64,000 bases of DNA from an uncultured Oscillospiraceae bacterium. Its GTDB lineage: Bacteria > Bacillota > Clostridia > Christensenellales > CAG-138. Location: the NCBI GenBank assembly GCA_964474405.1, contig CAYYUV010000002.1, forward strand, positions 19,349-83,348. Direction: 5' to 3'. A program made the position numbers and the translations under genes. Within the stretch, counting starts at the first letter, position 1; each line of letters opens with the position of its first letter. Shown piece by piece: positions 9,698 to 63,294 of this stretch. The notes beneath the pieces are model-generated. The model saw only the letters and a program-made list of their open reading frames with translations. It did not search any database and was not told where the DNA came from.

Positions 9698-10375
9698 CTA
9701 TAAAGGAAGCTTTGCCGGGGTGCCGGCCTTGCGAGGATAGCGCGCCGGGGTGGGCGCGGTCTTTTTGGCAAGGATCAGCGTGCGCGCGCCCGCCGCGGAG
9801 GGCACGGGAACGGGGCAAAGCGTGCAGCGAAGCTCCGTCTCCGCATGTGCGGATGCGCGCAGCTCCTCTGTGCAGTCGCCCTTATACAGGATCGCGGTGC
9901 CGCCCGTTTTGAGCAGCGGCACGGTGTATTCCAAAAGCACCGGCAGCGGCGCGACCGCGCGCGCCACGGCAAAATCAAACGTTCCGCGGTATGCCTTGTC
10001 GCGGCCGGCGTCCTCCGCCCGCAGATGCGCGGTTCGGGCGGAAAGGTCCAGCGCGTTCAGCACGCTTTGGACAAAGTTCAGCCTTTTTTGCAGCGCGTCC
10101 AGCAGCGTCATTTGCAGCGACGGCCGCATGATCAGAAGCGGGACGGCGGGAAACCCCGCGCCTGTTCCGACGTCGATGACGCTTGCTCCCTCCGGCAGAT
10201 ACCCAAGCGCGGAGATCGAATCCGCAAAATGCTTGACAGCCACGTCCTCGGGCGCGGTGATGGCGGTGAGGTTCATGACCGCGTTGGCTTCGATCAGCAT
10301 GCGGTAATAGAGGTCAAACGCTTCATACTGCGCTTGCGTCAGGTTCGGCAGGTGCGCCTTCCAAAGATGCATCAT
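9698..10375 (-). CDS. rsmG: 16S rRNA (guanine527-N7)-methyltransferase
   Basis: GidB family: LYYRMLIEANAVMNLTAI, SAM motif VIDVGTGAGFPAVPL. 4-nt overlap with mnmG. Confidence 0.9.
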   Translation of the reverse strand: MMHLWKAHLPNLTQAQYEAFDLYYRMLIEANAVMNLTAITAPEDVAVKHFADSISALGYLPEGASVIDVGTGAGFPAVPLLIMRPSLQMTLLDALQKRLNFVQSVLNALDLSARTAHLRAEDAGRDKAYRGTFDFAVARAVAPLPVLLEYTVPLLKTGGTAILYKGDCTEELRASAHAETELRCTLCPVPVPSAAGARTLILAKKTAPTPARYPRKAGTPAKLPL

Positions 10376-12240
10376 ACGGAAAACCCCCGTTTCTGGTAGA
10401 TCATCAGCACGGAAATGTCGGCGGGCGAAACGCCCGAGATCCGCGACGCCTGGCCGATGCTGGACGGACGCACGGCGTCAAGCTTCTGCCGCGCCTCGAT
10501 CCGAAGCCCGGAAAGCGTGCCGTAATCCAGATCCTGGGGCAGCGGCACATCCTCAAGCGCGTGCATGCGCGCCACCTCCTGTTTTTGCTTTTCAATGTAG
10601 CCGTCGTAGCGGGCAAGGATATCCACCTGCTCCTCCACCTCGGACGGCAGCGGCTCCAAAAGCTCCGAAAACAGCGACAAAAGCCCCGTATAGGTGACGC
10701 GCGGGCGCTTGAGCAGCTCGTCAAGACGCACGCCGGGATGCGGCGCGGGCTCGCCCAGCGCGGCAAGATAGTCCCGCAGCGCTTCCGTCACCGGCGCAGC
10801 CTGCGCAAGCTTAGCGCGCGCGCGGGCGACGCCCTCCTGCTTTTTGACCAAGCGCGCATACCGCTCGTCCGAAACAAGGCCGGTGCGCCGCGCGAGCTCG
10901 GTCAGCCTTAGGTCTGCGTTGTCCTGCCGCAGCAGCAGCCGGTATTCGCAGCGGGAGGTCATCATGCGGTACGGCTCACGCGTGCCCTTGGTCACCAGAT
11001 CGTCCGCCAGCACGCCGAGATAGCCGTCGGCGCGGGTGAGCAAAAAGGGCGGCTCATCTTTCAGATACAGCGCCGCGTTGACGCCCGCATACAGCCCCTG
11101 CGCCGCGGCCTCCTCATAGCCGGAGCTGCCGTTGAGCTGCCCACAGGTAAACAGTCCGTCGCAGCAGCGCGCCATAAACGCATTGTTCAGCGCGGTCGGG
11201 TCAAGACAGTCATATTCGATGGCATAGCCAAGGCGCGTGACCTCGCAGTGCCGCAGCCCGCGCAGCGTGCGCAGCATGTCGATCTGCACGTCGCCGGGGA
11301 GCGAGGTGCTCATGCCCTGCACATACATCTCGTCGGTAAAGCGCCCCTCCGGCTCGATAAAGATCTGATGCCGCTCCTTGTCGGAAAAGCGCACGATCTT
11401 ATCCTCGATCGACGGACAGTAGCGCGTGCCGGTCGCGTGGATGCGGCCGCCGTACATCGGCGAACGGGAAAGGTTGCCCAAGATGATGCGGTGGGTGTCG
11501 GCGTTTGTATAGGTCAGATAGCACGGCTCGTCCGGTACGGACAGCGCGCCGTGCAGGAAGGAAAAAGCGGGGGCGGGCACATCGCCGTGCTGCGTCTCCA
11601 TCTCGGAAAAATCCAGCGAGCCGCGCCGGACGCGGGCGGGTGTGCCCGTCTTGAACCGCTGCAAAGGCAGTCCCAGCGCGGAGAGCGCGGCGGACAGCGT
11701 TTCCGCGCGCGCAAGGCCGGAGGGGCCGCATTCCTTCTCCCATTCGCCGATTAAAATCCGGCTTTTGAGGTATACGCCGGCGGCGATCACCACCGCGCGG
11801 CAGGTGATGGAAAAGCCCTCGGCCGTCCTTACGCCCGTGACCCGGCCGTGACCGGTCTCAATCCTTGTGACCTCGCCCTGCATCAGAAAAAGATGCTCCT
11901 GCCGCGTGACGGCCTTGAGCATCCGCTCGTGATAGCGGCGCTTGTCCATTTGCGCCCGGAGGGAATGCACCGCGGGTCCTTTGCCGGTATTGAGCATACG
12001 CATCTGGATCAGCGTATCGTCCGCGGCAAGCCCCATTTCGCCGCCCATGGCGTCCAGCTCGCGCACCAGATGTCCCTTGCCGGTGCCGCCGATGGCGGGG
12101 TTGCAGGGCATCATGCCCACGCTGTCAACGGACAGCGTGATAAGAAGCGTGCGCTGACCCATGCGCGCAAGCGCCAGCGCGGCCTCCGCGCCCGCGTGAC
12201 CCGCGCCGACGACGACGGCGTCAAAGACGGGCTGCTGCAT
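10372..12240 (-). CDS. mnmG: tRNA uridine-5-carboxymethylaminomethyl synthesis enzyme MnmG (GidA)
   Basis: 622 aa. FAD motif [13 protein letters not shown], and [22 protein letters not shown]-like signature. Confidence 0.95.
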   Translation of the reverse strand: [622 protein letters not shown]

Positions 12241-50136: not shown

Positions 50137-50790
50137 ATGAACGAGACTGAATGCAAGGCGCGGGTCCGTCAGGAGCTGCTGGCAAGGCACTATCAGCAGA
50201 CAGGGGAACTTTTGATCCCTGTCAGCGTGTCGAACCGGCATGTTCATCTGGACGAGCCGGCGCTTTCTGTTTTGTTCGGGCAAGGGTATGCGCTGACACA
50301 TCAAAAGGATCTGGTGCAGCTTGGCCAGTACGCCTGTCGGGAGACGGTGACCCTGCGCGGGCCGAAGGGCGATATTGATAAGGTGCGCGTTCTGGGGCCG
50401 CTGCGCAAAGAGACGCAGGTTGAGGTCAGCCGGACGGACTGCTTTAAGCTTGGCATACCGCCGGTGCTGAAAATGTCCGGCGATTTGGATGGGACGCCGG
50501 GGCTGACGCTCGTGGGTCCGCGCGGCACGCTGACGCTTGCGCGCGGCGCGATGGTCGCCATGCGCCATCTGCATGTGCATACGTCGCAGGCGGATGTGCT
50601 CGGCCTCCATAACGGGGATTCGGTCTCCGTCATCACCACCGGCGAGCGGCCGATGGTCATGATGCAGGTGATCGTGCGTGTGTCGGACGGCGCGCTGCTT
50701 GAGGCGCATGTGGATACCGATGAGGCCAACGCCTCCGGCATCCGCAACGACATGTTGTGCCGCATCGTCAAGGAAGGGGCGGCATCATGA
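50137..50790 (+). CDS. pduL: Phosphate propanoyl/acyl-transferase PduL
   Basis: Duplicated PduL motifs (VSNRHVHL..., MRHLHVHT...); GPKGDIDKVRVLGP. Confidence 0.9.
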   Translation: MNETECKARVRQELLARHYQQTGELLIPVSVSNRHVHLDEPALSVLFGQGYALTHQKDLVQLGQYACRETVTLRGPKGDIDKVRVLGPLRKETQVEVSRTDCFKLGIPPVLKMSGDLDGTPGLTLVGPRGTLTLARGAMVAMRHLHVHTSQADVLGLHNGDSVSVITTGERPMVMMQVIVRVSDGALLEAHVDTDEANASGIRNDMLCRIVKEGAAS

Positions 50791-51377
50791 CGGGACAGCG
50801 GACGAAAAGCCTGATTTTGATTCCGGACTATATGAGCGTCAGGAGCATTCACGGCCAGCCGTCGGATGCGCTGATTGTGGGGGATCCCGACAAGGTGCCG
50901 GGTGAGCTGCGCACCGACAGGTTTTTGGACGTGACGGACGCCGCGTCGCGGCGGACAGTCGTGCAGATGGTGCCCGAGGTGGCACGGGCTGCCGTGGTAA
51001 CACCGTCTATGGCGTTCTACCGCCGCGTGTTTGAGCTGCGGGACGACTGCTTTTTTGCGGATCTGACCGCGCGCCTGCTTGCGACGGGCGCACACGTTTC
51101 GATCGTATCCGGCATGCAGCGCGTGCGCGTGCCGAAGCGTGCCGCCGAATGGCTCAGGGAGCTGAGCGCGGACGGCGCCAGGATCGTCTTTGAGGACGCG
51201 CCCGAAACGACGGGCGGAGCGCCGGAACTCATAACCGCAGCCGATGTGGCGGCTTGCGGACGGCAGGGAAGAAAAGAGCTGCTGGCCGCGCCGCGCGCGA
51301 TCGTAACCCCGGCCGCCCGGGATGAGGCGAAGGAACGGGGTATCACCATTTTGACAGGTACGGGAGGGCTTATATGA
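50787..51377 (+). CDS. BMC-locus protein of unknown function (196 aa)
   Basis: ATGA overlaps with both neighbours. The C-terminal ~40 aa reads ITAADVAACGRQGRKELLAAPRAIVTPAARDEAKERGITI. No enzymatic motif recognised. Confidence 0.6.
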   Translation: MTGQRTKSLILIPDYMSVRSIHGQPSDALIVGDPDKVPGELRTDRFLDVTDAASRRTVVQMVPEVARAAVVTPSMAFYRRVFELRDDCFFADLTARLLATGAHVSIVSGMQRVRVPKRAAEWLRELSADGARIVFEDAPETTGGAPELITAADVAACGRQGRKELLAAPRAIVTPAARDEAKERGITILTGTGGLI

Positions 51378-51949
51378 TTCTTGCAGTGGTCAAAGGCAAC
51401 GTGGTCAGCACGAACAAGACGGAAAAGCTGCAGGGCGGCAAGCTGCTGATCGTTGAGGAATGGAACGTCGACACCAAAGAGGCCTCCGGCCAGCCGCGCG
51501 TCGCGCTGGATCTGGTCGGCGCGGGCGAGGGCGAGCTGGTGATGTGCGTGTGCGGCAGCAGCGCGCGCCAGACCGAGGAAACGGACAAGCGCCCCGTGGA
51601 CATGGCCATCATCGGCATTGTCGATCAGGCGGAGATGAACGGCGTTACCTGCTATAAAAAGTATCGTTCCGCAGAGGAAAAAGCGGCGGATCAGGCGGCT
51701 CAAACGGCGGCGTCCCGCATCGAAAAGCCGGTGCCGGCGGTGACAAAGCCCGCGGAGAAGGCGGCCGCCATCCCGGCAGCGCCTGTGGGCGAGCCGTCGA
51801 TGGACGACAACCGGCGCGAGGCCGAGAAGGCGGCGGAGCGGTTTCGCCAGATCCTGTCCGCAAGCAACGAGCAGCTTAAGAACGCGGACGCGGCCGCGCA
51901 GACGCATCCCAAGGCAAAAAAGCCCGCTGCGCCGGGAATGAAAAAATAG
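51374..51949 (+). CDS. BMC-P (EutN/CcmL/PduN pentamer) with ~100-aa C-terminal extension
   Basis: MILAVVKGNVVSTNKTEKLQGGKLLIV...VDMAIIGIVD is an EutN fold. An Ala/Lys/Glu/Pro-rich tail follows. Confidence 0.8.
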   Translation: MILAVVKGNVVSTNKTEKLQGGKLLIVEEWNVDTKEASGQPRVALDLVGAGEGELVMCVCGSSARQTEETDKRPVDMAIIGIVDQAEMNGVTCYKKYRSAEEKAADQAAQTAASRIEKPVPAVTKPAEKAAAIPAAPVGEPSMDDNRREAEKAAERFRQILSASNEQLKNADAAAQTHPKAKKPAAPGMKK

Positions 51950-52020
51950 GAAGGCGTTTGGAACCGGCACAATATTTGGACAGAAGAACGAAGAGTTTGG
52001 ATAAAAGAGGGTAGAAGCGA

Positions 52021-53421
52021 ATGCTGTCACAGGAACAAATCGAAAAGATCGTGGCTGACGTGGTACAGCAGATGCATCGGGGCGAAGAAGCGGAACAAGC
52101 GCCGACCAGCTGCTTCTTTGACGACATGGACGCCTGCGTCGCGGCGGCCGTTGCGGCACAAAAGGCGTTTGTGCGGCTCGGCATGGAAAAACGCCGCAAG
52201 ATCGTCGAGGCCATGCGTGCGGCTGCACGCGAGCATGTGGACACGCTTGCCAAGGCAGCGTTTGAGGAAACCCATTACGGCTCTGTTGCGCACAAGACGG
52301 CCAAGTGCCTGCTTGCGGCGGATAAGACGCCCGGCGTGGAGGATCTTGAGACGCGCGCCATCACCGGCGACGACGGTTTGACACTGATCTTTCCGGCACC
52401 GTTCGGCGTGATCGGATCGATCACCCCTTCCACCAACCCCGTTGCCACCGTCATCAACAACGGCATCAGCATGACGGCAGGGGGCAACACGGTGGTGTTC
52501 TCCCCCCATCCGGCGGCAAAGAAATGCTCAGCCATGGCCATCGAGGTGCTGAACCATGCCGCGCTTTCGGCGGGCGCGCCCGCGCCGCTGCTGTTTGCGG
52601 CGAAGGAGCCCTCCATCGAGGCGTCGCAGCGCATGATGGCGCATCCGGCGATCCGCCTGCTGTCGGTCACCGGTGGCTCTGCCATTGTTGATATGGCGAT
52701 GAAAACAGGCAAGAAGGTCATCGGCGCAGGCCCCGGCAACCCGCCAGTCATTGTCGATGAGACCGCAAATATCGAAAGAGCCGCCCGGGATATCGCGGAT
52801 GGCGCCACGTTTGAGAACAACGTTCCCTGCATCTCCGAGAAGGAGACCTTCGTGGTTGAGAGCGTCGGAAACGACCTGGTCAAAGGGCTTGTCAAGGCCG
52901 GCGGCCAGCTGCTTGACTGCGGACAGACCGAAAAGCTTTTGAAGACGGTCTTGATCGAGAAGGACGGAAAATATACCATCAACCGCGATTTTGTCGGCCG
53001 TGACGCCGCATATCTGCTCAGGAGCGCGGGCATCCCCGTGCAGGGCGAGCCGCGGCTGGTTGTGACGATCACCAAGCGGGATCATCCGTTTGTGACGACC
53101 GAGATGCTGATGCCGGTCATGCCGGTGGTCTACGTCAAGAATGTGGATGAGGCGATCGCCTGCGCGGTCGAGGCCGAGCACGGCTGTCATCACTCGGCGC
53201 ATATGCATTCCACCAACATTGAAAATCTTTCCAAGGCCAGCGCCGCGCTCGATACCACGATCTTTGTCAAGAACGGGCCGTCCTACGCGGGCATCGGCTT
53301 TGGCGGCGAGGGCTTTACCACGTTTACCATCGCTACGCCGACCGGCGAAGGCCTCACGAGCGCGCGCACGTTCACAAGGACACGGCGCTGCACGCTCCGC
53401 GGCACGTTCAACATGCTGTAA
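52021..53421 (+). CDS. CoA-acylating aldehyde dehydrogenase (PduP/EutE family) with N-terminal encapsulation peptide
   Basis: Amphipathic MLSQEQIEKIVADVVQQM. Catalytic segment ENNVPCISEKE; 466 aa. Confidence 0.9.
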   Translation: MLSQEQIEKIVADVVQQMHRGEEAEQAPTSCFFDDMDACVAAAVAAQKAFVRLGMEKRRKIVEAMRAAAREHVDTLAKAAFEETHYGSVAHKTAKCLLAADKTPGVEDLETRAITGDDGLTLIFPAPFGVIGSITPSTNPVATVINNGISMTAGGNTVVFSPHPAAKKCSAMAIEVLNHAALSAGAPAPLLFAAKEPSIEASQRMMAHPAIRLLSVTGGSAIVDMAMKTGKKVIGAGPGNPPVIVDETANIERAARDIADGATFENNVPCISEKETFVVESVGNDLVKGLVKAGGQLLDCGQTEKLLKTVLIEKDGKYTINRDFVGRDAAYLLRSAGIPVQGEPRLVVTITKRDHPFVTTEMLMPVMPVVYVKNVDEAIACAVEAEHGCHHSAHMHSTNIENLSKASAALDTTIFVKNGPSYAGIGFGGEGFTTFTIATPTGEGLTSARTFTRTRRCTLRGTFNML

Positions 53422-53489
53422 GCACAGCGGACGCACAGGCATTTGACGGGCTCACCCCGTAAACACGCAGGGCAGAAGGAGAGGGTTAC

Positions 53490-54797
53490 ATGGTCATTCA
53501 CGATAAATGTAAGGCGGCGGGGGTCGTCGGCGCAGGCGGCGCCGGGTTCCCCACGCATGCAAAGCTGAACTGCAAGGCCGACATCGTCATCGGCAACGGC
53601 GCGGAGTGCGAGCCGCTGTTGCGCGTTGACCAGCAGCTGATGAAGAACGAGCCGGATCTTGTCGTCGAGGGCATGCGCTGCGCCATGGAGGCTTGCGGCG
53701 CCAAGCAGGGTCGGATCTGCATCAAGGGCAAGCATAAGGAGGCCGTCGAGGCGCTAAAGGCCGCCTGTGAAAAGGTGAGCGGCATCGAGGTGTTTGTTCT
53801 CAACGATTATTATCCGGCGGGCGACGAGCAGCAGATGGTCTATGACGTGACCGGGCGTATCGTGCCGGTTGGCGGCATCCCGATCGACGCGGGCGCCGTC
53901 GTGCAGAACGTTTCCACACTTAAGAACATCGCGCTGGCGCAGCGGGATATCCCCGTCACGCATAAGCGCCTGACCGTCACCGGCGCGGTTGGCCATCCGA
54001 TGACCATTGATGCGCCGATCGGCATGTCGCTGAGGGACTGCATCCGCATGGCGGGCGGCCCTGAGGATGAGGAGGGCTACGGCCTGATCTGCGGCGGGCC
54101 GATGATGGGCTTTGTCGAAAAGAATTGGGACAACGTCGTCACCAAGACGACCGGCGGCCTGATCGTGCTGCCGAAGGATCACCCGCATTTTCTCCGTAAA
54201 TCCGCACCGCAGGCGTTTAATCGCAAGCTGGCCAAAGCGGTCTGCTGTCAGTGCATGAGCTGCACCTCAATGTGCCCGAGAAACGCGTTGGGACTCGGCG
54301 TCAAGCCGCACCTGGCCATGCGCGCCGCCGCGGGCGGTGGAACGTATGAGGACAACGGGCTGTTCTCCTGCTGCAACTGCGGCATCTGTTCCTACTATGC
54401 CTGCCCGTTCGGGCTTTCGCCGTCCACCATCATGACGGAGGCAAAGACCGCCATGGCGCAGTCCGGCAAAAAGCCCGTCAAGACGCAGCCCGCGCGTGCG
54501 CACCAATTTCGTGAATACGGCAAGGTGCCGGTACGCCGCCTCGTTGCGCGGCTGGGACTCAAGGCATACGACGTACCCGCACCGCTCTATCAGGGCGAGA
54601 TCCGCCCGGGCGAGGTGCGCATCCCGATGAAAATGCACATCGGCGCGCCGTGCGAGCCGGTCGTGACCGTGGGCTCCGCGGTCAAATGCGGCGACGTCAT
54701 CGCAAAGATTCCCGAAGGAAAGCTCGGCGTGGATATCCACGCCTCCATCGACGGACAGATCCGCGCCATCGAAAATGGCTGCATCGTGATCGGATAA
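53490..54797 (+). CDS. PduS/RnfC-like flavin and Fe-S electron-transfer protein
   Basis: GAGGAGFPTH, an SLBB-like segment, and two Cys clusters (CCQCMSCTSMCP, CCNCGICSYYCP). Confidence 0.8.
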   Translation: MVIHDKCKAAGVVGAGGAGFPTHAKLNCKADIVIGNGAECEPLLRVDQQLMKNEPDLVVEGMRCAMEACGAKQGRICIKGKHKEAVEALKAACEKVSGIEVFVLNDYYPAGDEQQMVYDVTGRIVPVGGIPIDAGAVVQNVSTLKNIALAQRDIPVTHKRLTVTGAVGHPMTIDAPIGMSLRDCIRMAGGPEDEEGYGLICGGPMMGFVEKNWDNVVTKTTGGLIVLPKDHPHFLRKSAPQAFNRKLAKAVCCQCMSCTSMCPRNALGLGVKPHLAMRAAAGGGTYEDNGLFSCCNCGICSYYACPFGLSPSTIMTEAKTAMAQSGKKPVKTQPARAHQFREYGKVPVRRLVARLGLKAYDVPAPLYQGEIRPGEVRIPMKMHIGAPCEPVVTVGSAVKCGDVIAKIPEGKLGVDIHASIDGQIRAIENGCIVIG

Positions 54798-54813
54798 GGG
54801 AGGTTGGCAACTT

Positions 54814-55359
54814 ATGGAAGCATTGGGAATGGTCGAACTCAACAGCATCTCGCAGGGAATTCTGGCGGCGGATGCGATCCTGAAGGCCGCGAACGTAACC
54901 ATCGTACGCGCGCAGCCGGTCTGCCCGGGCAAGTATATCGTCATCGTCAACGGCAGCGTCGCGGATGTGAAGGCCTCCGTCGAGGCCGGGAGCGAAGCCG
55001 CCGCGGAGCATCTGCTGGACAGCATGATCATCCCGCGCGTGCATGAGGACGTGATCCGCGCGATGAGCGGGTGCGTCGATCTTGCGGGCGTGGCCGCGCT
55101 CGGCGTGATCGAAACCTATTCGCTGGCGCAGGCGCTTTTGTCCGCCGACGCCGCGGTCAAATCCGCGGATGTCGCGCTGATGGAGATCCGGCTTGGCACG
55201 GGCCTTGGCGGAAAGTCGTTTGTGCTGCTGACCGGCAGCGTATCGGCTGCACGCGCCGCCGTACAGGCGGGCGTGGGCGAGCGGGGGGACGACGGCATGG
55301 TCGTCAGCTCCGTGGTCATTCCGGCTCCGCATCCGGAGCTGACCCAGGCGCTGCAATAA
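54814..55359 (+). CDS. BMC-T tandem-domain shell protein (PduT-like)
   Basis: Two BMC domains (EALGMVELNS..., AALGVIETYS...). A Cys in PVCPGKY aligns with the PduT Fe-S ligand motif (TICPGKF). Confidence 0.85.
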   Translation: MEALGMVELNSISQGILAADAILKAANVTIVRAQPVCPGKYIVIVNGSVADVKASVEAGSEAAAEHLLDSMIIPRVHEDVIRAMSGCVDLAGVAALGVIETYSLAQALLSADAAVKSADVALMEIRLGTGLGGKSFVLLTGSVSAARAAVQAGVGERGDDGMVVSSVVIPAPHPELTQALQ

Positions 55360-55453
55360 GCGGCGGCTCGGTTTTTTGAGGACGGAACCCAACAGCAGGG
55401 TCCCGCGGACATGATTCCCTGAAGGACGCACAGGCGAAAGGAGAGCGAACCCT

Positions 55454-55732
55454 ATGATGATCGGAAAAGTGATCGGAAGCGTCGTTTGTACGCCGAAGCA
55501 TGAGGCGCTCCATGGCGTCAAGCTGATGCTGGTTCGCCGGTATGCCGCGGGCAGACCCGCGGAAGTGGTGGTGGCGGCCGATTCCTTGCGCACGGCCGGC
55601 GCCGGTCAATATGTGTATATGGTGGACAGTACCGAGGCGGCCGCCTCCCTCCGCGTGGGCATGACCCCCGTGGATCTGGCGATTGTCGGGATTATCGACC
55701 AATACAATAGCAGAAAATGCAACCTTGCATGA
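55454..55732 (+). CDS. BMC-P (EutN/CcmL) vertex protein, second copy
   Basis: [27 protein letters not shown]...[10 protein letters not shown]. Confidence 0.85.
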
Positions 55733-55755
55733 AATTAATGAAGGAGGATCTATTC

Positions 55756-56022
55756 ATGGAAAAAGAAGCACTTGGTCTGATCGAAACCAGAGGGTTTGTC
55801 GGCGCGGTTGAGGCGGCGGATGCCATGGTCAAAGCGGCCGATGTCAAACTGATGAGCAAAGAGACGGTCGGCGCCGGGCTGGTCACGGTCATGGTGCGCG
55901 GCGATGTCGGCGCGGTCAAGGCGGCGGTCGATGCAGGCGCAGCGGCAGCAAAGCGCGTTGGCGAACTGGTGAGCGTGCATGTCATTCCGCGTCCCCACAA
56001 CGACGTGGAAGGCATCCTGTAA
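55756..56022 (+). CDS. BMC-H hexameric shell protein (PduA/EutM-like)
   Basis: [37 protein letters not shown]...VHVIPRPH. Confidence 0.9.
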
Positions 56023-56034
56023 GGGCACAAAGGT

Positions 56035-56325
56035 ATGCGCGTAGGTCGTGTCGTCGGCAACATCGTCTCCGTCATCAAGGAGCCGACTCATATTGGCAAA
56101 AAGATGATGCTTATCCGGTTTCTCAACGATCGCGGGGAGGAACTGGATGATGAGTACGTGTATGCCGACGCGGCCGGCGCGGGCGTGGGGGATCTGGTTC
56201 TCGTGTCGGAGGACGGCAGTGCGGCGGAGACCGAGTTTCATCTCGAAAACGACGTTTGCACCTTCGACGGCGTCATTGTAGGCGTGGTGGATTCCATGCG
56301 TTACGACCGATCCGTCACCCCGTAA
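56035..56325 (+). CDS. BMC-P (EutN/CcmL) vertex protein, third copy
   Basis: MRVGRVVGNIVSVIKEPTHIGKKMMLI...FDGVIVGVVD. Confidence 0.8.
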   Translation: MRVGRVVGNIVSVIKEPTHIGKKMMLIRFLNDRGEELDDEYVYADAAGAGVGDLVLVSEDGSAAETEFHLENDVCTFDGVIVGVVDSMRYDRSVTP

Positions 56326-56354
56326 AAAACAGCGAAAAAAACGTGAACTTCGTC

Positions 56355-56383
56355 TTGCCATTGCTATAATATGTTGTTATAAT
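56355..56383 (+). promoter_or_regulatory. Internal BMC promoter P2
   Basis: TTGCCA, 17-nt spacer, TGT-TATAAT (56378-56383), in a 166-bp AT-rich gap. Has the same 18-mer TGTTATAATGAAGTCATC as P1. Confidence 0.6.
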
Positions 56384-56491
56384 GAAGTCATCAGACAACT
56401 TGCGATCTAAGTATGATATCAAAGAGCAATCTACATTCAGGTCGCTGGCGGACAGGACACAAGCGTATTACACGAAAGGAAGAATATAAAG

Positions 56492-56776
56492 ATGGAAAAA
56501 CAGGCACTCGGTTTGATTGAAACCCGTGGTTTTGTCGGCGCAGTTGAAGCTGCCGATGCAATGGTCAAAGCAGCCAACGTCACCCTGGTCGGCAAGGAGA
56601 TGGTCGGCGGCGGTCTGGTTACGGTTCTGGTACGCGGCGACGTCGGCGCGGTCAAAGCGGCCGTCGATGCGGGCGCATCCGCAGCCAAGGCGGTCGGCGA
56701 GATCGTCAGCGTACACGTCATCGCACGTCCGCACGACGATGTCGAGGGCATCCTGCCGCAGAAGAAAGCGGAATAA
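56492..56776 (+). CDS. BMC-H hexameric shell protein, second copy
   Basis: [27 protein letters not shown]...VHVIARPH. Confidence 0.9.
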
Positions 56777-56833: not shown

Positions 56834-57538
56834 TTGGAAATGGATATTGAACAAATCATCAAACGCGTTGCAGAAGAGGTATACAGCAAGATCCGCACCG
56901 AGGAGCAGGCGGGCGGCAGCGTCCGCGCGAGCTCCGGTGAGGAGTGGATCCTGTCTCGCATGCAGCCGAGTATGCGCCTCGACGAGGTCAAGAAGGCCTG
57001 TGACGAGGTAAGGAACGGCAAAGCAAAGACGCTGTGCATTCCCCAGTGGTTTGTCAGCTATGCGGCAGAGCAGCTCAAGGGCAGCGGCGTCAAGGTCGCG
57101 ACCGTTGTGGGTCTGCCGGGCGGCACGACATCGTCGTTTGCCAAGTATGCCGAGGTCAAGCAGGCGGTCGTCGCCGGCGCGGAAGCGATCCTGATCCCGG
57201 TCAACATGCAGCTTTGCGCTGTGGGTGACTGGGGCGGAGCCAAGAACGACCTGGGGGAATCCATGGTTCCCTGCAAGGACAAGGCAACGGTCTATGCCGT
57301 GATCGAGGTGGACGCGCTTTCGTGCGATCAGCTCGCAACCGCGGCCGAGATGTGCGGCTCCTGCGGCGTGGACGCGGTGCTTCTGTCGGCGGTTGTCGGC
57401 GGCAGAGTCAGCGACCAGCAGGTGCAGGCCGTCAAGCAGAAGGGCGTCCGCACGGGCGTATACGGCGGCGTAACGCAGTCGACTCAGGACGGTTACAGCA
57501 GAGCGGGAGCATGCTGCTTCGCGGCATCCGCGTGCTGA
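56834..57538 (+). CDS. DeoC/DERA-like aldolase-fold protein with N-terminal encapsulation peptide; catalytic lysines apparently absent
   Basis: TTG at 56834 or ATG at 56840. Encapsulation-peptide-like MDIEQIIKRVAEEVYSKI. DERA-like core GSGVKVATVVGLPGGTTSS...AGAEAILIPVN...VYAVIEV...GVDAVLLS. Confidence 0.7.
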   Translation: MEMDIEQIIKRVAEEVYSKIRTEEQAGGSVRASSGEEWILSRMQPSMRLDEVKKACDEVRNGKAKTLCIPQWFVSYAAEQLKGSGVKVATVVGLPGGTTSSFAKYAEVKQAVVAGAEAILIPVNMQLCAVGDWGGAKNDLGESMVPCKDKATVYAVIEVDALSCDQLATAAEMCGSCGVDAVLLSAVVGGRVSDQQVQAVKQKGVRTGVYGGVTQSTQDGYSRAGACCFAASAC

Positions 57539-57580: not shown

Positions 57581-58291
57581 ATGCTGGCTTATGTGAGCGC
57601 AAAAATGAAGATCCTTCAGTTTATCAAGGGTCAGAACCTCCAGGCAGGCGATCGCTTGCCCACGGAGATGGAGCTCTCGGATAAGCTCGACATCAGCCGC
57701 CTGACGCTCAGGGAGGCGCTGAACGCCTTAAAGAGTGAGGGCGTGGTGCATTCCGTCCAGGGAAAGGGTACCTTTGTCGCCTGCAATTATGACCATATTT
57801 CGGATTCGCTGAACGTCAATTACAGCGTGACCGAGATGATCGTGGCGGCGGGGTATGAGCCGGGCGTGGCCTCGTTTGAGAAAAAGCTCATCAAGGCCGA
57901 CGACTGCATTTGCAAGCAGCTGAACGTGCAGCTTGGGACGGATGTACTGATGTGCTCACGGATTCGGCTGGCGGATAACGTGCCGGTCATCTATTCGCGG
58001 GATTATCTGGCGCCGCGGTTGGCAACCGAGTTTCTGGGCGTGACGGACGAGGGGATTTCGCTGTATTCCTTTATGGAGGAGAGCTGCGGCATCCACCTGG
58101 GCGTCTGCCTGACGGAGCTCATACCGACCGTTGCGGACGCGGAGCTGTCGGGCATGCTGAACGTGCCCGTGGGCGCGCCGCTGATGAAGCTGCGCGCAAA
58201 CGTCAACGACGCCTTCGGCGTTCCGCTGGTTTATGCAAGCGAGTATTTCAGACCGGACAAATTCAAGTTTATCGTATCACGCGGGAGGTAG
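57581..58291 (+). CDS. GntR/HutC-family transcriptional regulator (wHTH + UTRA), paralogue 2
   Basis: MLAYVSAKMKILQFIKGQNLQAGDRLPTEMELSDKLDISRLTLREALNALKSEGVVHSVQGKGTFV. The next gene starts 6 nt downstream. Confidence 0.85.
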   Translation: MLAYVSAKMKILQFIKGQNLQAGDRLPTEMELSDKLDISRLTLREALNALKSEGVVHSVQGKGTFVACNYDHISDSLNVNYSVTEMIVAAGYEPGVASFEKKLIKADDCICKQLNVQLGTDVLMCSRIRLADNVPVIYSRDYLAPRLATEFLGVTDEGISLYSFMEESCGIHLGVCLTELIPTVADAELSGMLNVPVGAPLMKLRANVNDAFGVPLVYASEYFRPDKFKFIVSRGR

Positions 58292-58297
58292 CGAAAC

Positions 58298-59368
58298 ATG
58301 AAAGCAGTTGTAAAGTATGGTTACGGCAAGGGTGAAACCGAGCTGCGCGACGTCCCCGTTCCCGAAATTGGCGACGACGATCTTTTGATCGAGGTCAAGG
58401 CCGCGGGCGTTTGCGGTTCGGATATCGCATTCGACAACGGACAGCACAAGGAAATTTTGAATCCCCCGGTCGTCCTCGGGCATGAGTTTTCCGGCGTGAT
58501 CGCCAAGGTTGGCAAGAATGTGACCGATTGGAAGGTCGGCGACCGTGTGGTTTCGGACAACACCGGCGAGGTCTGCGGCCATTGCTATGCGTGCAACACC
58601 GCGGATTACCTTTCCTGCCCCACGCGCAAAGGCATTGGCTACGGCATGGACGGCGGCTTTACCAACTATGTCAAGATTCTGGGCAAGACGCTTGCCCGCG
58701 TGCCGAGCAGCCTGCTGCGCATCCCTGACTGCATGAGCTTTGAAGAAGCGGCGATCCTCGACCCCGCCTGCAACGGCTATATGGCCGTCGTACAGGAGGC
58801 CAAGGTGATGCCGGGCGACTTTGTGGCCGTTTTCGGCGTCGGCGCCCTGGGGCTTTTCTCCATCCAGGCAGCACGCGCCGCCGGCGCAGCAAAGATCATC
58901 GCCATCGCGCTTTCCAGCGACGGAGAGGGTCGTTTTGAGATGGCCCGTCACTGCGGCGCAACCCATATTGTCAAGTCCGACGTTGAGGATTGCCATGCGC
59001 GCGTCATGGAGCTGACAAACAACGAGGGCGTGAGCTGCGTCGTGGACGCGGCGGGCGTCAACGTGGTCATGCCCACCATCATTGACATTCTGCGCACCGC
59101 GGGCATCATCGTCAAGATCGGATACGATCATAACCCGTACACGCGCTCCCTGGATCCCTTCGTCGACGGCGCCAAGGCGCTCAAGGGTCACTTTGGCTAT
59201 GACTGGGTATCTTGGAGAAACGTGATGAACCTGGTCGAAGCGGGCAAGTTTGACCTCAAGTGCATGATTTCCCACAAGATGCAGGTTTCGCAGTTCCGCG
59301 AAGCATTTGACATGGTTCGCCGGAAGGAATCCATCAAAATCATTCTGTATCCGGATCCGTTAAACTAA
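58298..59368 (+). CDS. Zinc-dependent MDR alcohol/polyol dehydrogenase (sorbitol/threonine dehydrogenase-like)
   Basis: GVCGSDI, GHEFSGVI and the structural-zinc Cys cluster CGHCYACNTADYLSC. GGGAGG RBS. Confidence 0.85.
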   Translation: MKAVVKYGYGKGETELRDVPVPEIGDDDLLIEVKAAGVCGSDIAFDNGQHKEILNPPVVLGHEFSGVIAKVGKNVTDWKVGDRVVSDNTGEVCGHCYACNTADYLSCPTRKGIGYGMDGGFTNYVKILGKTLARVPSSLLRIPDCMSFEEAAILDPACNGYMAVVQEAKVMPGDFVAVFGVGALGLFSIQAARAAGAAKIIAIALSSDGEGRFEMARHCGATHIVKSDVEDCHARVMELTNNEGVSCVVDAAGVNVVMPTIIDILRTAGIIVKIGYDHNPYTRSLDPFVDGAKALKGHFGYDWVSWRNVMNLVEAGKFDLKCMISHKMQVSQFREAFDMVRRKESIKIILYPDPLN

Positions 59369-59417
59369 ACGCTGTGGCGGGCGCGGTGTGATCGAGGCCC
59401 GCAGTTGGAGGCAAGTT

Positions 59418-60461
59418 TTGGAAATCTATATTTGTGCAGACTTTTCACAGGACGGGATCGAAATGCTCAAAGTCGCCGGTCATACCGTGCGTACAGGCGG
59501 CTGGGGCTTCACCGGCGAGATTCTCAATGAGGATCAGCTGATCCGCGAGATCGGCAATGCGGACGTGCTGATCGTAGGTTACGAGGAAGTGACCAAGAAA
59601 GTGCTTGACAGCACGCATCTTTCGGTGATTTCCAGCATCCGCGGCGGCCCGCGCGCCAATATCGACGTCGATTATGCGACGCAGAAGGGCATCCCCGTAT
59701 TCTTCACGTTCGGCCGTGAGGCGCTGCCGGTGGCGGACTTCACGATGGGTCAGGTGCTGGCCATCACCCGTAAGATCGTGCGTGCGGACTCCGAGCTTCA
59801 CAAGGGCGTGTTCACCGCGCCGGCCGGGGACTTCGGCAGCGACAAGGACGTCATCTGGGACATGAACGCCGAGGGTCCGTGGCAGAGCCGCAAGGGCATC
59901 GAGATGGAAGGCAAGACCTACGGTCTGATCGGCTTCGGCACGGTCGGCAAAGAGGTCGCCAAGCGTGCCCGCGGATTTGGCATGAACGTGCTGGTCTACG
60001 ATCCGTACCAGAAGGCCGAGGTCGTCGCCTCCTACGGCGCCACCAAGGTTGAGCTGAACGACCTGCTTCGCGCAGCGGACATCATCAGCTTCCATGCCAA
60101 GGTCAACGATTCCAACAAGGGCATGGTCGGGGCAGAGCAGTTCAAGATGATGAAGGACGGCGTGTATATTGTCAACAACGCACGCGCCGGACTGATGGAC
60201 GAACAGGCGCTCCGTGACGCGCTGCGCAGCGGCAAGCTGGGCGGTCTGGCTCTGGACGTGTTTCATCAGGAGCCGATCAAGCGTGATGACGAGATGTTCC
60301 AGTATCCGAACGTGGTGCTGACGCCGCATATCGCGGGCGCCGGCCGCGACGTCATCTATCTGCAGTCGGTCATGCTCGTCAACGACCTGCTGCTGTACTT
60401 CGCGGGCGGGCGTCCCAAGCCCATCGTCAACCCCGAAGTGTTTGAGAAGAAAGGCAGGTAA
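59418..60461 (+). CDS. D-isomer-specific 2-hydroxyacid dehydrogenase family protein
   Basis: Preferred TTG start at 59418 (GGAGG 5 nt upstream; the track start is 59388). GLIGFGTVGKEVA NAD motif; NNARAG; TPHIAG. Confidence 0.8.
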   Translation: MEIYICADFSQDGIEMLKVAGHTVRTGGWGFTGEILNEDQLIREIGNADVLIVGYEEVTKKVLDSTHLSVISSIRGGPRANIDVDYATQKGIPVFFTFGREALPVADFTMGQVLAITRKIVRADSELHKGVFTAPAGDFGSDKDVIWDMNAEGPWQSRKGIEMEGKTYGLIGFGTVGKEVAKRARGFGMNVLVYDPYQKAEVVASYGATKVELNDLLRAADIISFHAKVNDSNKGMVGAEQFKMMKDGVYIVNNARAGLMDEQALRDALRSGKLGGLALDVFHQEPIKRDDEMFQYPNVVLTPHIAGAGRDVIYLQSVMLVNDLLLYFAGGRPKPIVNPEVFEKKGR

Positions 60462-60467
60462 CGCGGT

Positions 60468-61529
60468 ATGGCACTGGTTAAGACACTCGATATGCTCGCA
60501 CAGTGCGAGCGCGGAAAATACGCCGTCGGCGCATTCAATCTCAATTCTCTCGATCAGGCGCAGTTTCTGATCAAGCGGGCGGAGCAGCTCAAATCCCCGA
60601 TCCTGCTGGTCGAGCCGGGCGTCATTGAGAAATATATGGACTTTACGGATTTTGCGATGGTTTCGGCGCGCGCCGCGGCCAAGGCAAACATCCCGGTCGG
60701 CATTCACCTCAGCCACGGTCTCGATCTGGAGCAGACCGAGCGCGCGGTCAAGGCGGGCTTCACCTCCGTCATGTATGACGGCAGCAAGCTGCCCTATGAG
60801 GAGAACGTTCGCACCACCAAGATCGCGGTCGAGATCGGCCACAAGTATGGCTGCGCGGTCGAAGGCGAGCTGGGCGCATTGGGTTCCAGCTTTGCCAACG
60901 TGTCCGAGTCGATGACCGACCCGGCGCTTGCCAAGGATTACGTCGCCCGCACCGGCGTTGATATCCTCGCAGTTTCGATCGGAAACGCGCACGGCTTCTA
61001 CAAGGGCACGCCGTCGCTCGATTTCAAGCGTCTGGAGGAGATCCGCTACGCGCTGATGCCGTTCAACTGCTATCTGACGCTGCACGGCGGCACGGGTATC
61101 CCGGAGAACCACATCCGCCGCAGCATCGAGATGGGCATTGTCAAGATCTGCATCTACACCGAGATGTGCCATGAGGGCAAGGCCGACACCGTCAAGTACC
61201 TCAGTGCGCATCCCGATTATGCCGGCAACTATGACATTCCTGAGATGCTGGCCGCCTGCATGGGCGGGTTTGCCCGCTCGATGGAGAGCTGCATGAACAT
61301 GTTCATGAGCATTGGCAAGGCATATAACGATATTCCGGCCATCGCCTATGAAAAGCAGCCGATCACGCCCGTCGCCATGCCGTCGTTTGCCGCGCCCGCG
61401 GCAGCGCCCGCTGCGGCAGGTGCGCAGGCCATTCCGCAGAACACCGACATCGGTCCCGCTTATCCGTCTCTGCCGGCCGAGAACAAGAGCTTCAAGTCCA
61501 CCGGCCGTTACTGGGACAAGAACCTGTAA
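60468..61529 (+). CDS. Divergent class II (metal-dependent) ketose-bisphosphate aldolase family protein with ~70-aa C-terminal extension
   Basis: YAVGAFNLNS, VEGELG, SIGNAHG and LTLHGGTGIP match FBA/GatY-class II. HLDH reads HLSH, and KIN..T reads KICIYT. Confidence 0.75.
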   Translation: MALVKTLDMLAQCERGKYAVGAFNLNSLDQAQFLIKRAEQLKSPILLVEPGVIEKYMDFTDFAMVSARAAAKANIPVGIHLSHGLDLEQTERAVKAGFTSVMYDGSKLPYEENVRTTKIAVEIGHKYGCAVEGELGALGSSFANVSESMTDPALAKDYVARTGVDILAVSIGNAHGFYKGTPSLDFKRLEEIRYALMPFNCYLTLHGGTGIPENHIRRSIEMGIVKICIYTEMCHEGKADTVKYLSAHPDYAGNYDIPEMLAACMGGFARSMESCMNMFMSIGKAYNDIPAIAYEKQPITPVAMPSFAAPAAAPAAAGAQAIPQNTDIGPAYPSLPAENKSFKSTGRYWDKNL

Positions 61530-61696: not shown

Positions 61697-63199
61697 ATGT
61701 GGGTTATGGGCGTTGACATGGGCACCTCCGGCTGTAAGGCCGTGGTGTTTGACGAGAGCTTCATCATCCGCGCGCAGGCATATCGGGAATACCCCATGCA
61801 TCTGCCGGGCGAGGGGCTGCTTGAATTGGATGCGGAGCTCGTATGGGCGGGCATTCAGGATGCCATCCGCGAGGCCAATCAAAAGGCCGAACAGCCCGTA
61901 GGTGCGCTGGCTGTCTCCGCCATCGGCGACGTGATTGTCCCGGTGGATGAGCACGGCGACAGCGTGCGTTATGCAATTGTCGATTTCGATGCCCGCGGCG
62001 GCGCGGAGATCGACGCGTTTTCCCGGCAATTCGGCCAACAGCATTTTTTCGACATCAGCGGCATGCCGCCGCTGTATATCGGCAGTTTATCCAAAATACT
62101 CTATTTACGGGACAAGGAGCCGGAGGTTTACAAAAAGATCCGGCGCTTTGCCAGCTTTGAAGATTATATCGTGTGCAAGATGGGTCTGCCGCCCGTAGCG
62201 AGTTATTCCGAGCTTTCGCGCACGATGTTGTTTGATATTCGCAAAAAGGACTGGTCGGACGAGATTCTCGCCGCCATTCCGCTGACGCGGGACATGCTGC
62301 CCATCGCAGCGCCGTCTGCAAGCGTGATCGGCGATTTATCCGACGAAATGCGCGCTTTATTGGGCTTTTCCAAGCCCGTTCGGGTCGTGACCGGCGGTCA
62401 TGACATGGTTTGCGCGGCTGTCGGCGCGGGGCTTGACGAGACGGATCCCGGCACCGTCGTCGATATCGCCGGCACGATCGAGGGCATCGTTGCCGCAATG
62501 CCGGAGGCGAACACCTGTCCCGCCATGCTGGAGAACCTGTTCCCCTGCTATGTCGGGCATACCGGCTATGTGACCTTCTCGGTCAATCTGACCGCAGGCT
62601 GCATCGTTCGCTGGTACCGCGATTTTATCGCCCGCGACGAGTATGACGCCTGTAAAAAGGAAGGCATCAATTTCTACGAATACATGCAGCGCAAGGCAAA
62701 CCCGGCCGAGCCCGGAAAGCTGTTGCTGCTGCCGCATTTTTCGGGCAGCGGAAACCCGTTCTTTGACCCGGCGGCGCTCGGCGCCGTGTGGGGGCTGACG
62801 CTGGACACCGACCGGGCGGACATCGGCCGCGCGATCGTGGAGGGGCTTGCGTATGAGCTTCGGTTGCACCTTGAGGCGCAGCAGCGGGCGGGCATCCATA
62901 TTTCGGCGATCCGTGCGGTCGGCGGCGGCGCGGCCATCGACTCCCAGCTCCAGCTTAAGGCAAACATTACGGGGCTCACGGTTGTCAAGGGCGCGGTGGC
63001 GGAATCCTCCGCACTCGGCGCTGCGGCCTATGCCGCGGTCGGCATCGGTCAGATTGCAAACCCGGCCGACGCCTATCAAAAGGTCAAGGCACGCGAAACG
63101 GTTTTCACGCCGGATCCCGCGGCGCATGCGCGGTTTGAGGCGGCTTATCGCAGGTTCCGCGCCCTCGCCTATGCAATTCACGACGTCGAACAGCAATAA
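61697..63199 (+). CDS. FGGY-family carbohydrate kinase (xylulokinase/ketose kinase-like)
   Basis: Start MWVMGVDMGTSGCKAVVFDE. GGHDMVCAAVGAG; GGGAAIDSQLQLKANI. Confidence 0.85.
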   Translation: MWVMGVDMGTSGCKAVVFDESFIIRAQAYREYPMHLPGEGLLELDAELVWAGIQDAIREANQKAEQPVGALAVSAIGDVIVPVDEHGDSVRYAIVDFDARGGAEIDAFSRQFGQQHFFDISGMPPLYIGSLSKILYLRDKEPEVYKKIRRFASFEDYIVCKMGLPPVASYSELSRTMLFDIRKKDWSDEILAAIPLTRDMLPIAAPSASVIGDLSDEMRALLGFSKPVRVVTGGHDMVCAAVGAGLDETDPGTVVDIAGTIEGIVAAMPEANTCPAMLENLFPCYVGHTGYVTFSVNLTAGCIVRWYRDFIARDEYDACKKEGINFYEYMQRKANPAEPGKLLLLPHFSGSGNPFFDPAALGAVWGLTLDTDRADIGRAIVEGLAYELRLHLEAQQRAGIHISAIRAVGGGAAIDSQLQLKANITGLTVVKGAVAESSALGAAAYAAVGIGQIANPADAYQKVKARETVFTPDPAAHARFEAAYRRFRALAYAIHDVEQQ

Positions 63200-63294
63200 T
63201 GTACCCATCAGGGCGTCCGGGGAGGGCGGCCTTGGCGAAGATAAAAACGAAGGCGGCACGGCCGCTTGAGCAAATGCCGCGAATGCGGCAGAAA

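Follow-up and report, generated by a model that had tools for sequence, protein, structure and literature searches.

The window analyzed here, 64,000 nucleotides of DNA from an uncultured Oscillospiraceae bacterium (GenBank assembly GCA_964474405.1, contig CAYYUV010000002.1, positions 19,349 to 83,348), contains a string of bacterial microcompartment genes that is followed by a gene for a protein with the fold of deoxyribose-phosphate aldolase (DERA). All four catalytic residues of DERA are replaced in this protein, which we call pseudo-DERA (pDERA). Next to it lies a cassette encoding a Zn-dependent dehydrogenase, a 2-hydroxyacid dehydrogenase, a class II aldolase-like protein and an FGGY kinase. 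The reading we favor, at a probability of roughly one half, is that pDERA is a pseudo-aldolase derived from a DERA that carried an encapsulation peptide (EP) in a microcompartment of the SPU type, and that it now serves as a non-catalytic accessory or adaptor of the cassette. SPU loci are defined by a PF01791 protein plus an aldehyde dehydrogenase (AldDH) (Sutter et al. 2021, PMC8217296; Dwyer, Sutter and Kerfeld 2024, PMC11585597).

The ORF list and its translation give pDERA as an intact plus-strand open reading frame (ORF) that ends at 57538 and has two in-frame starts, a TTG at 56834 and an ATG at 56840. A first-pass annotation made from the letters of the window had begun the gene at 56834; an in-frame TTG is indeed present there, but gene callers and close homologues use the ATG, and the identical protein on other contigs (P0001) is called from the ATG corresponding to 56840. 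A possible Shine-Dalgarno sequence, AGGTGAG, lies about 11 nt 5' of the pDERA start. No second DERA is encoded in the 64-kb window. The gene is laid out as follows.

56840..57538, + strand: pDERA coding sequence, 232 aa plus stop (ORF list and translation)
56846..56908, + strand: putative EP helix, residues 3-23, IEQIIKRVAEEVYSKIRTEEQ (AlphaFold2 (AF2) helix, hydrophobic moment (muH), conservation)
56909..56941, + strand: disordered Gly/Ser/Ala linker, residues 24-34 (AF2 pLDDT, low conservation)
56942..57535, + strand: DERA-type (beta/alpha)8 barrel, residues 35-232 (AF2, Foldseek)
57029..57184, + strand: beta2-alpha2-beta3-alpha3 block, residues 64-115, signature C(I/V)PQWFV ... VGLPGGTTS.AKYAE.KQA, the most constrained part of pDERA
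57191..57193, + strand: codon L118, position of E. coli D102, strand 4 (alignments)
57293..57295, + strand: codon Y152, position of E. coli K137, strand 5 (alignments; taken for the K167 column in the first-pass annotation)
57380..57382, + strand: codon L181, position of the Schiff-base lysine K167, strand 6 (alignments; taken for the K201 column in the first-pass annotation)
57455..57457, + strand: codon G206, position of E. coli K201, strand 7 (hmmalign; Y208 in the alternative register of phmmer)

The core of pDERA is homologous to DERA, as had been proposed from a by-eye alignment. Against solved DERAs in the PDB, phmmer returns E values of 1e-14 to 1e-10, and HMMER reproduces the by-eye pairing of GSGVKVATVVGLPGG with VKVxTVxGFPxG. 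The protein scores 70.7 bits against the NCBIfam deoC equivalog TIGR00126, below the cut-off of 117.3, and passes Pfam PF01791 (DeoC/LacD) only marginally (27.0 bits vs a gathering threshold of 23.8), over residues 45-140 only; about half of the pDERA homologues lack a precomputed PF01791 match. An AF2 model built on 53 family sequences (mean pLDDT 92.2) puts residues 3-23 in a helix and residues 24-34 in a low-confidence linker, with pLDDT below 50 at residues 24-29, and shows a complete eight-stranded (beta/alpha)8 barrel. When this model was compared with the PDB by Foldseek, the top 50 matches were all DERAs or DERA-family aldolases, the best of them at TM 0.82-0.88 and rmsd 1.4-2.1 A. Comparison of a predicted structure with DERA, a check named at the outset, thus finds the barrel retained.

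The catalytic residues are not retained. Our numbering follows an E. coli DeoC sequence that is identical to PDB 1jcl through residue 238. PDB 1jcj, which we take to be the published K201L mutant, has Leu at position 201 (GFLPAGG), which places K201 in GFKPAGG on strand 7. D102 falls in ADEVDVV on strand 4, K137 in LLKVIIET on strand 5, and the Schiff-base lysine, K167, in ADFIKTSTG on strand 6. MAFFT, phmmer and hmmalign concur that pDERA carries L118 at D102, Y152 at K137 and L181 at K167; K201 is replaced by G206 in the hmmalign alignment and by Y208 in the alternative register of phmmer. The substituted residues sit on AF2 strands 116-120, 150-156, 179-183 and 205-208. Beyond these four, D16 has become I37 and T18 has become S39, and C47 (C66 in pDERA) and the G204-G205 pair are kept.

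The first-pass annotation had stated that the Schiff-base lysine and its partners were missing. This stands, and the loss is wider than stated, with all four positions replaced. Its change of D102 to Leu was assigned to the right column. Its other two labels were off by one beta-strand: the LKVIIET segment, where it read the Schiff-base K167 as changed to Ala, is the K137 column, in which Y152 aligns, and the ADFIKTSTG segment, where it read K201 as changed to Leu, is the column of the Schiff-base K167, in which L181 aligns. The true K201 column was not among its three positions. The inspection it had proposed of the K167, K201 and D102 columns with hmmalign finds no lysine in any of them. Relatives that appeared to retain K167 in a first MAFFT reading proved, once the E. 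coli numbering was checked, to have been read in the K137 column; P0034, P0036 and P0038 keep D/E102, K137 and K201 and lack the Schiff-base K167.

One could still ask whether pDERA is a conventional DERA whose lysines are hidden by misalignment, particularly as one by-eye register had already slipped by a strand. Yet three alignment methods agree, the predicted strands carry the substituted residues, the equivalog cut-off is not reached, and the cores of strands 4-7 contain no lysine. Conservation of lysine across the clade is confined to K102 and K107 on helix alpha3. True DERAs share K102 (97%) and have Lys at the K107 position in only 31% of cases; no substitute nucleophile is evident. We regard a misplaced alignment as barely credible. 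The earlier verdict that pDERA cannot be a conventional class I DERA is upheld, given that four invariant residues are replaced, mostly by hydrophobic ones, and that the TIGR00126 cut-off is failed. With these residues gone and a hydrophobic top layer facing the inside of the barrel, pDERA cannot, judging from the sequence, cleave deoxyribose 5-phosphate by class I aldol chemistry.

The loss is a property of a whole clade. A homologue search over 5.8 billion proteins returned only 58 relatives, and a profile search over 1.84 billion representatives returned 8,644 sequences, mostly ordinary DERAs. We scored the four catalytic columns in about 200 sequences. D102, K137, K167 and K201 are invariant in the true DERAs (97/97 each), and none of the four is retained in any member of a full-loss clade of about 61 Clostridia proteins, so that the question of whether homologues share the substitutions is answered in the affirmative for 61/61. 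Column 102 is I/L/F/M/V throughout the clade (61/61), column 137 is variable (Y, A, L, F, M, I and others), column 167 is L or M in 53/61, and column 201 is G in all 58 of the members that have the column. The NCBI name of pDERA homologues is 'hypothetical protein'.

An intermediate set of EP-bearing proteins lacks the Schiff-base lysine. Written as the residues in columns 102, 137, 167 and 201, these are DKVK (P0034, P0038), EKAK (P0036), DRYK (P0078) and DNLK (P0080). In a neighbor-joining tree the sequences form a ladder that begins with housekeeping DKKK DERAs, passes through EP-bearing DKKK DERAs of the SPU type and proteins that have lost K167 only, and ends in the group that has lost all four, within which the short EP-less forms are nested. 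Among relatives with an intact catalytic set, the closest to pDERA are EP-bearing DKKK DERAs from SPU-type loci. The one such relative with usable context, P0082 in locus L035, lies in an SPU-like locus without the sugar cassette, and its gene is placed at the end of the shell gene string.

Loss of the Schiff-base lysine is also seen outside this series. It has occurred independently in the EP-less DERA-like proteins P0182, P0085, P0136, P0118 and P0181 (DKVK, DKQK, NKMA, NTQI and DTSK, respectively). P0167 (L043:2920-3654) is EP-bearing, reads DKSK and stands at the end of a shell-gene string, followed by unrelated genes. A further set of proteins of 455-480 aa (P0091, P0107, P0109, P0116, P0117, P0123 and P0127) has an EP-like N-terminus and an intact C-terminal DERA domain; these are probably the RPI-DERA or flavoprotein-DERA fusions of PMC11585597 and PMC12747264.

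Despite the loss of catalytic residues, pDERA is maintained by selection. Each of the 30 or more loci examined has an intact ORF. Nine locus pairs, which include both shell-linked and shell-less ones, give dN/dS values of 0.06-0.21; shell-less means here that no shell gene lies within 10 kb on each side. The shell-less pairs tested fall at 0.06-0.12, and the flanking enzymes at 0.02-0.10. Across clade sequences of 35-80% identity, 38 positions are at least 90% conserved. pDERA evolves 2-5 times faster than the neighboring enzymes and is less constrained than true enzymes. This faster evolution, together with the lost catalytic residues, is what one might expect of a functionless DERA relic in decay, but the dN/dS values indicate purifying selection and therefore argue that pDERA is not such a relic. 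The intact ORFs, the 38 conserved positions and several segments that are more conserved than in true DERAs point the same way, and we consider decay very improbable. In the sense of an enzyme homologue that has lost the essential catalytic residues and is kept by purifying selection, pDERA is a pseudoenzyme.

Constraint in the clade has moved from strands 5-8 to the beta2-alpha3 region. The mean top-residue frequency of the beta2-alpha2 segment is 0.64 in the pseudo clade and 0.57 in true DERAs, and that of beta3-alpha3 is 0.82 vs 0.63, whereas strands 5-8 stand at 0.47-0.56 in the clade and 0.59-0.83 in true DERAs. P68, W70, F71, L92, S98, A101, Y103, A104, K107, Q108, P120 and G206 are near-invariant in the clade and not in DERAs; Q69 is likewise near-invariant (93%) in a column that is a conserved Pro in DERAs (94%). 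Helix alpha3 is conserved both at positions conserved in DERAs and at positions variable in them (A101, Y103, A104, K107, Q108), a pattern that would fit a protein-protein interface better than an active site. Shell-less forms of 174-175 aa that lack the strand 7-8 region keep the PQWF, LPGGTTS, AK(Y/F)AE.K and PVNM motifs. The 174-aa pDERA found in shell-less rumen lineages (L024, L026, L029, L030 and L032) ends shortly after strand 6 in a short unrelated tail and has a dN/dS of 0.06-0.08; its barrel may be incomplete.

The N-terminus of pDERA has the properties of an EP. As had been noted on first reading, MDIEQIIKRVAEEVYSKI resembles the N-terminus of the AldDH of the locus (EQI.K.VA..V in common, by eye), and the resemblance has held up: the helix, which AF2 places at residues 3-23, is strongly amphipathic, with a muH of 0.67, a value reached by 0.2% of shuffles, vs 0.58 for the AldDH N-terminus, and its presence tracks shell genes. 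Within the helix I7, E13 and V14 are conserved at 94-100% in the clade; the linker that follows (residues 24-34) is the least conserved segment, with a mean top-residue frequency of 0.29. All 20 shell-linked copies begin with a (D/E)xxIIxxITxEVY helix. Among the shell-less copies, 12 of 13 start directly at barrel strand 1, without an EP, and the copy in L025 may retain part of one. As the shell-less forms group together in the tree, the correlation reflects few independent events; it suggests a link between EP and shell without being statistical proof. Because its presence tracks shell genes across loci, the helix can be said to behave as an encapsulation peptide, and we regard it as a candidate cargo signal.

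No shell-specific terminal extension was found on the other four cassette proteins when shell-linked and shell-less loci were compared, and pDERA is the only cassette component that is, as far as sequence can tell, marked for encapsulation. The Zn-dehydrogenase, the 2-hydroxyacid dehydrogenase and the FGGY kinase yielded no EP. An apparent N-terminal extension of the 2-hydroxyacid dehydrogenase is conserved everywhere and reflects a mis-called start, and shell-less loci likewise conserve the tail at the C-terminus of the aldolase-like protein; both were set aside as EPs. As to the start, the upstream in-frame peptide LEIYICADFSQDGIE of the 2-hydroxyacid dehydrogenase is conserved in all loci, which favors a start at the GTG at 59388 or elsewhere upstream over the ATG at 59463; the enzyme has probably been called too short.

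The microcompartment string upstream of pDERA spans 50137..56776, and its gene order is repeated in related loci. Its genes were assigned from Pfam and from gene calls on identical contigs (the conserved unknown protein from gene calls), and those downstream of pDERA from Pfam and NCBIfam.

50137-50790, + strand: PTAC
50787-51377, + strand: conserved unknown protein
51374-51949, + strand: BMC-P
52021-53421, + strand: EP-bearing AldDH
53490-54797, + strand: PduS-like protein
54814-55359, + strand: BMC-T
55454-55732, + strand: BMC-P
55756-56022, + strand: BMC-H
56035-56325, + strand: BMC-P
56492-56776, + strand: BMC-H
57581-58291, + strand: GntR/UTRA regulator
58298-59368, + strand: Zn-dependent dehydrogenase
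59388/59463-60461, + strand: 2-hydroxyacid dehydrogenase
60468-61529, + strand: class II aldolase-like protein (PF01116)
61697-63199, + strand: FGGY kinase
starts at 63274, + strand: ABC sugar transporter

A scan of one genome per species yielded 29 loci, all in metagenome-assembled genomes of gut or rumen Clostridia (Oscillospiraceae, Lachnospiraceae and Christensenellaceae), and synteny was followed by tblastn with the window proteins across 34 loci. The cassette of Zn-dehydrogenase, 2-hydroxyacid dehydrogenase, aldolase-like protein and FGGY kinase adjoins pDERA in every locus with enough sequence. Thirteen of these cassette-adjoining loci are free of shell genes for 10 kb on each side. Further loci, found with the aldolase-like protein as the only query, encode pDERA in 3/3 cases, and L040 has its shell genes lying within the cassette. 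pDERA is thus genetically inseparable from a four-enzyme sugar or polyol cassette. NCBIfam matches of the cassette proteins (IolM-like, PGDH-like, GatY/FBA-like) all fall below cut-off and do not name a substrate.

These loci bear on the first suggestion of the first-pass annotation, a pure microcompartment scaffold or core organizer with no role outside the organelle. In its favor are the EP and linker of pDERA and a position at the end of the shell string like that of the SPU DERA in L035, and there are precedents in CcmM, a dead AldDH and the SPU RPI. However, the 13 shell-less loci keep an orthologue beside the cassette, EP-less in 12 of them and with a possible remnant in L025, and it is under purifying selection in the pairs tested (dN/dS 0.06-0.12). 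The role therefore belongs to the pathway and not only to the organelle. 'Scaffold or cargo organizer' was too narrow, and a scaffold confined to the organelle is improbable.

In its gene content the locus is formally of the SPU type, with a BMC-P triplet, an acylating AldDH, PTAC, PduS and a PF01791 protein. Functionally it is not, as it encodes no catalytically competent DERA and no RPI or TPI gene is called.

Several neighboring genes have features of their own. The first BMC-P (51374-51949, 191 aa) has its EutN/CcmL domain in residues 1-84 and an Ala-, Lys-, Pro- and Glu-rich tail of about 95 aa at the C-terminus; its counterpart in L004, L005, L036 and L040 has 99-127 aa. The 196-aa protein at 50787-51377, between PTAC and BMC-P, has no Pfam or NCBIfam match. 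Gene calls place it at the same site in L004, L005, L035, L036 and L040, of which L035 is SPU-like with an intact DERA, and it is above the tblastn threshold in only some other shell-linked loci. Its orthologues have an EP-like N-terminal helix, which the window copy seems to lack, and the C-terminal motif L(V/I)TExDV...IVTPxARDxAKExGI. Elsewhere the genes that go with the cassette include those for a PIG-L family deacetylase, a conserved 220-225-aa protein without a Pfam match (MK..PELIVMLTHNDKTV...) and often an aldo-keto reductase (L004:14800-16307, L036:15388-16935, L037:15450-16865, L038:6707-7426 and 10153-10815, L040:16339-18359), and these companions may hint at the cassette substrate. 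The FGGY kinase is intact (500 aa) in the window, L002 and L003, and split into 110 + 378 aa in L001:14858-16360, a near-identical contig from SRR12762279.

The class II aldolase-like protein at 60468-61529 is atypical as well. It has HLSH where class II fructose-bisphosphate (FBP) and tagatose-bisphosphate aldolases have HLDH; the Asp replaced by Ser corresponds to D109 of E. coli FbaA, the catalytic residue that polarizes the substrate. HLSH occurs in 119 of its 120 nearest homologues and HMSH in the other, and the three Zn-binding His motifs are kept. Its nearest NCBIfam models are those of GatY, KbaY and FBA, each below cut-off. Both aldolase folds of the pathway are thus non-canonical, and they always co-occur. 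The aldolase-like protein also has a conserved C-terminal tail of about 40 aa, NTDxGPEYPSLPAxNxxFxxxGxYWDKN (within 61320-61529), in shell-linked and shell-less loci; in the window copy a 25-aa Ala/Pro-rich linker precedes it. A 286-aa relative in L038 lacks the tail. A role of the tail as a docking element for pDERA is not supported, as the locus of this tail-less relative still has pDERA.

We propose that pDERA could act as a non-catalytic accessory subunit that binds one of the cassette enzymes through its beta2-alpha3 surface. The clearest analogy for such a role would be GatZ/KbaZ, the TIM-barrel, non-catalytic partner of the class II ketose-bisphosphate aldolases GatY and KbaY. In genomes with shell genes, the EP of pDERA might make it an adaptor that brings its partner, and hence the aldehyde-forming step, into the lumen, where the partner would find the EP-bearing acylating AldDH and PTAC.

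A number of points weigh against this accessory role. The key clades of the neighbor-joining tree have only about 50% bootstrap. Mirror-tree analysis singled out no partner (partial r of 0.44 for the FGGY kinase, 0.36 for the Zn-dehydrogenase, 0.17 for the 2-hydroxyacid dehydrogenase and 0.16 for the aldolase-like protein). By the usual logic of microcompartments an EP-bearing, pathway-specific protein would be the signature enzyme, which argues for catalysis by pDERA. The loops that follow strands 2-4 are conserved and belong to the catalytic face of the TIM barrel, so that they could form a small-molecule site rather than an interface. The hydrophobic plug that appears to fill the former active site is modeled from strand positions, not from measured geometry. 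The HLSH protein, for its part, may not be a plain aldehyde-forming aldolase.

The main rival to an adaptor is a new enzymatic activity. pDERA might have been repurposed for chemistry that needs no Schiff base (an isomerase, epimerase or lyase acting on a cassette intermediate) and be the real encapsulated signature enzyme. No other pathway-specific protein has an EP, the feature by which signature enzymes are usually recognized; selection on pDERA is strongly purifying, and operons without shell genes retain it. Its most conserved residues (C66, P68, Q69, W70, G91-S98, P120, N122) lie in the loops after strands 2-4, on the catalytic face, and the cassette may be missing a catalytic step, the aldolase-like protein being without its canonical Asp. 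However, the family has no invariant polar residue of its own; E105 and K102 occur in DERAs as well and sit on alpha3, and C66 is replaced by Leu or Val in 6/61 members. The position of K137 is highly variable and those of D102 and K167 are hydrophobic. There is no cluster of His, Asp or Glu that would hint at a metal site, some members lack the strand 7-8 region, and the phosphate-binding side is degenerate. We therefore judge a repurposed enzyme unlikely.

A related alternative is that pDERA is a non-catalytic binder of small molecules, its pocket holding a sugar, a sugar phosphate or an aldehyde that it buffers or hands to AldDH. The conserved catalytic-face loops adjoin the hydrophobic former active site (I37, C66, L118, Y152 and L181), and by analogy with DERA the half of the barrel that is retained is the aldehyde-donor side and the half that has decayed is the phosphate side. 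Yet a defined pocket is difficult to reconcile with the variability of the Y152 position, and a ligand does not explain the conserved outer face of alpha3. A binding protein of this kind is, in our estimate, rather improbable.

The accessory reading of pDERA can be taken one step further, on a more speculative footing. An SPU-derived microcompartment may now serve a polyol or ketose pathway, with the dead barrel as an EP adaptor on which an EP-less partner rides piggy-back. The partner would most likely be the HLSH aldolase-like protein, and the two degenerate aldolase folds would perhaps form one unit. We offer this extension tentatively, as doubtful but worth stating: if true, it would define a new route for the encapsulation of a signature enzyme, and a change of organelle substrate by exaptation of a former signature enzyme.

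SPU microcompartments are among the most widespread metabolosomes. Because the PF01791 protein of this clade appears unable to perform the DERA reaction, typing such loci by Pfam would assign the wrong substrate to organelles of gut and rumen Clostridia in the Oscillospiraceae, Lachnospiraceae and Christensenellaceae. The clade displays a stepwise decay, the Schiff-base lysine first and its partners later, and it is a natural experiment in which one protein has or lacks an EP according to the presence of shell genes. It ties an organelle to an uncharacterized sugar cassette with an atypical class II aldolase-like enzyme, and it bears on how EP-less cargo enters a microcompartment.

Housekeeping DeoC (EC 4.1.2.4, TIGR00126; PDB 1jcl, 6d33, 3r12) shares its barrel with pDERA at TM 0.82-0.88. 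Of the DeoC motifs, pDERA keeps those of the N-terminal half (CxxPxxV, TVxGxPxG, K..E...A and GA....(I/V)xxN), with GFP changed to GLP. It differs in the C-terminal half of the barrel, which is poorly conserved and in which KTSTG has become LLSAV, in the four replaced active-site residues that are invariant in DeoC, and in its score against TIGR00126 (70.7 vs 117.3 bits). Like GatZ/KbaZ, which are Pfam family PF08013, pDERA is a TIM barrel without catalytic machinery that is encoded beside a PF01116 aldolase. The likeness is purely one of proposed mechanism: the sequences are unrelated, and the sole Pfam match of pDERA is PF01791.

The DERA of SPU microcompartments is the closest known system. 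Both proteins combine a DERA fold with an N-terminal amphipathic extension, and the genes of both end a shell string that includes a BMC-P triplet, an EP-bearing AldDH, PTAC and a PduS homologue. The SPU6 DERA keeps D102, K167 and K201 and is active, DERA has been proposed as the universal SPU signature enzyme, and the organelle is inferred to degrade deoxyribose 5-phosphate from DNA (PMC11585597, PMC8217296). pDERA, in contrast, lacks D102, K137, K167 and K201. The SPU6 extension consists of a helix of roughly 70 residues plus two strands, whereas that of pDERA comprises about 21 helical residues and a linker of about 11. SPU loci commonly encode RPI; the pDERA locus lacks RPI and TPI and is joined to a dehydrogenase/kinase/class II aldolase-like cassette. 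Unlike SPU DERA, pDERA has orthologues without shell genes nearby. A universal and active DERA as the SPU signature enzyme thus seems not to hold for this clade.

A search of the literature library for catalytically dead DERAs in microcompartments, or for the cassette (apulose; Christensenellaceae), returned nothing relevant. The precedents for pDERA are other inactive enzyme homologues of microcompartment cores. An EP-bearing and probably inactive RPI, without its catalytic Cys, forms a complex with the active SPU6 DERA; others are the second, dead AldDH of GRM1 and the gamma-carbonic-anhydrase domain of CcmM (PMC11585597). Like pDERA, each has a dead enzyme fold that carries or acts as a packaging element and is kept in its locus. 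Unlike them, pDERA is the presumed signature enzyme and persists, EP-less, in shell-less operons; its non-catalytic role would therefore predate or outlive the organelle. What is new in pDERA is that a pseudoenzyme of the microcompartment core is itself the protein presumed to be the signature enzyme, and that it also exists apart from the organelle.

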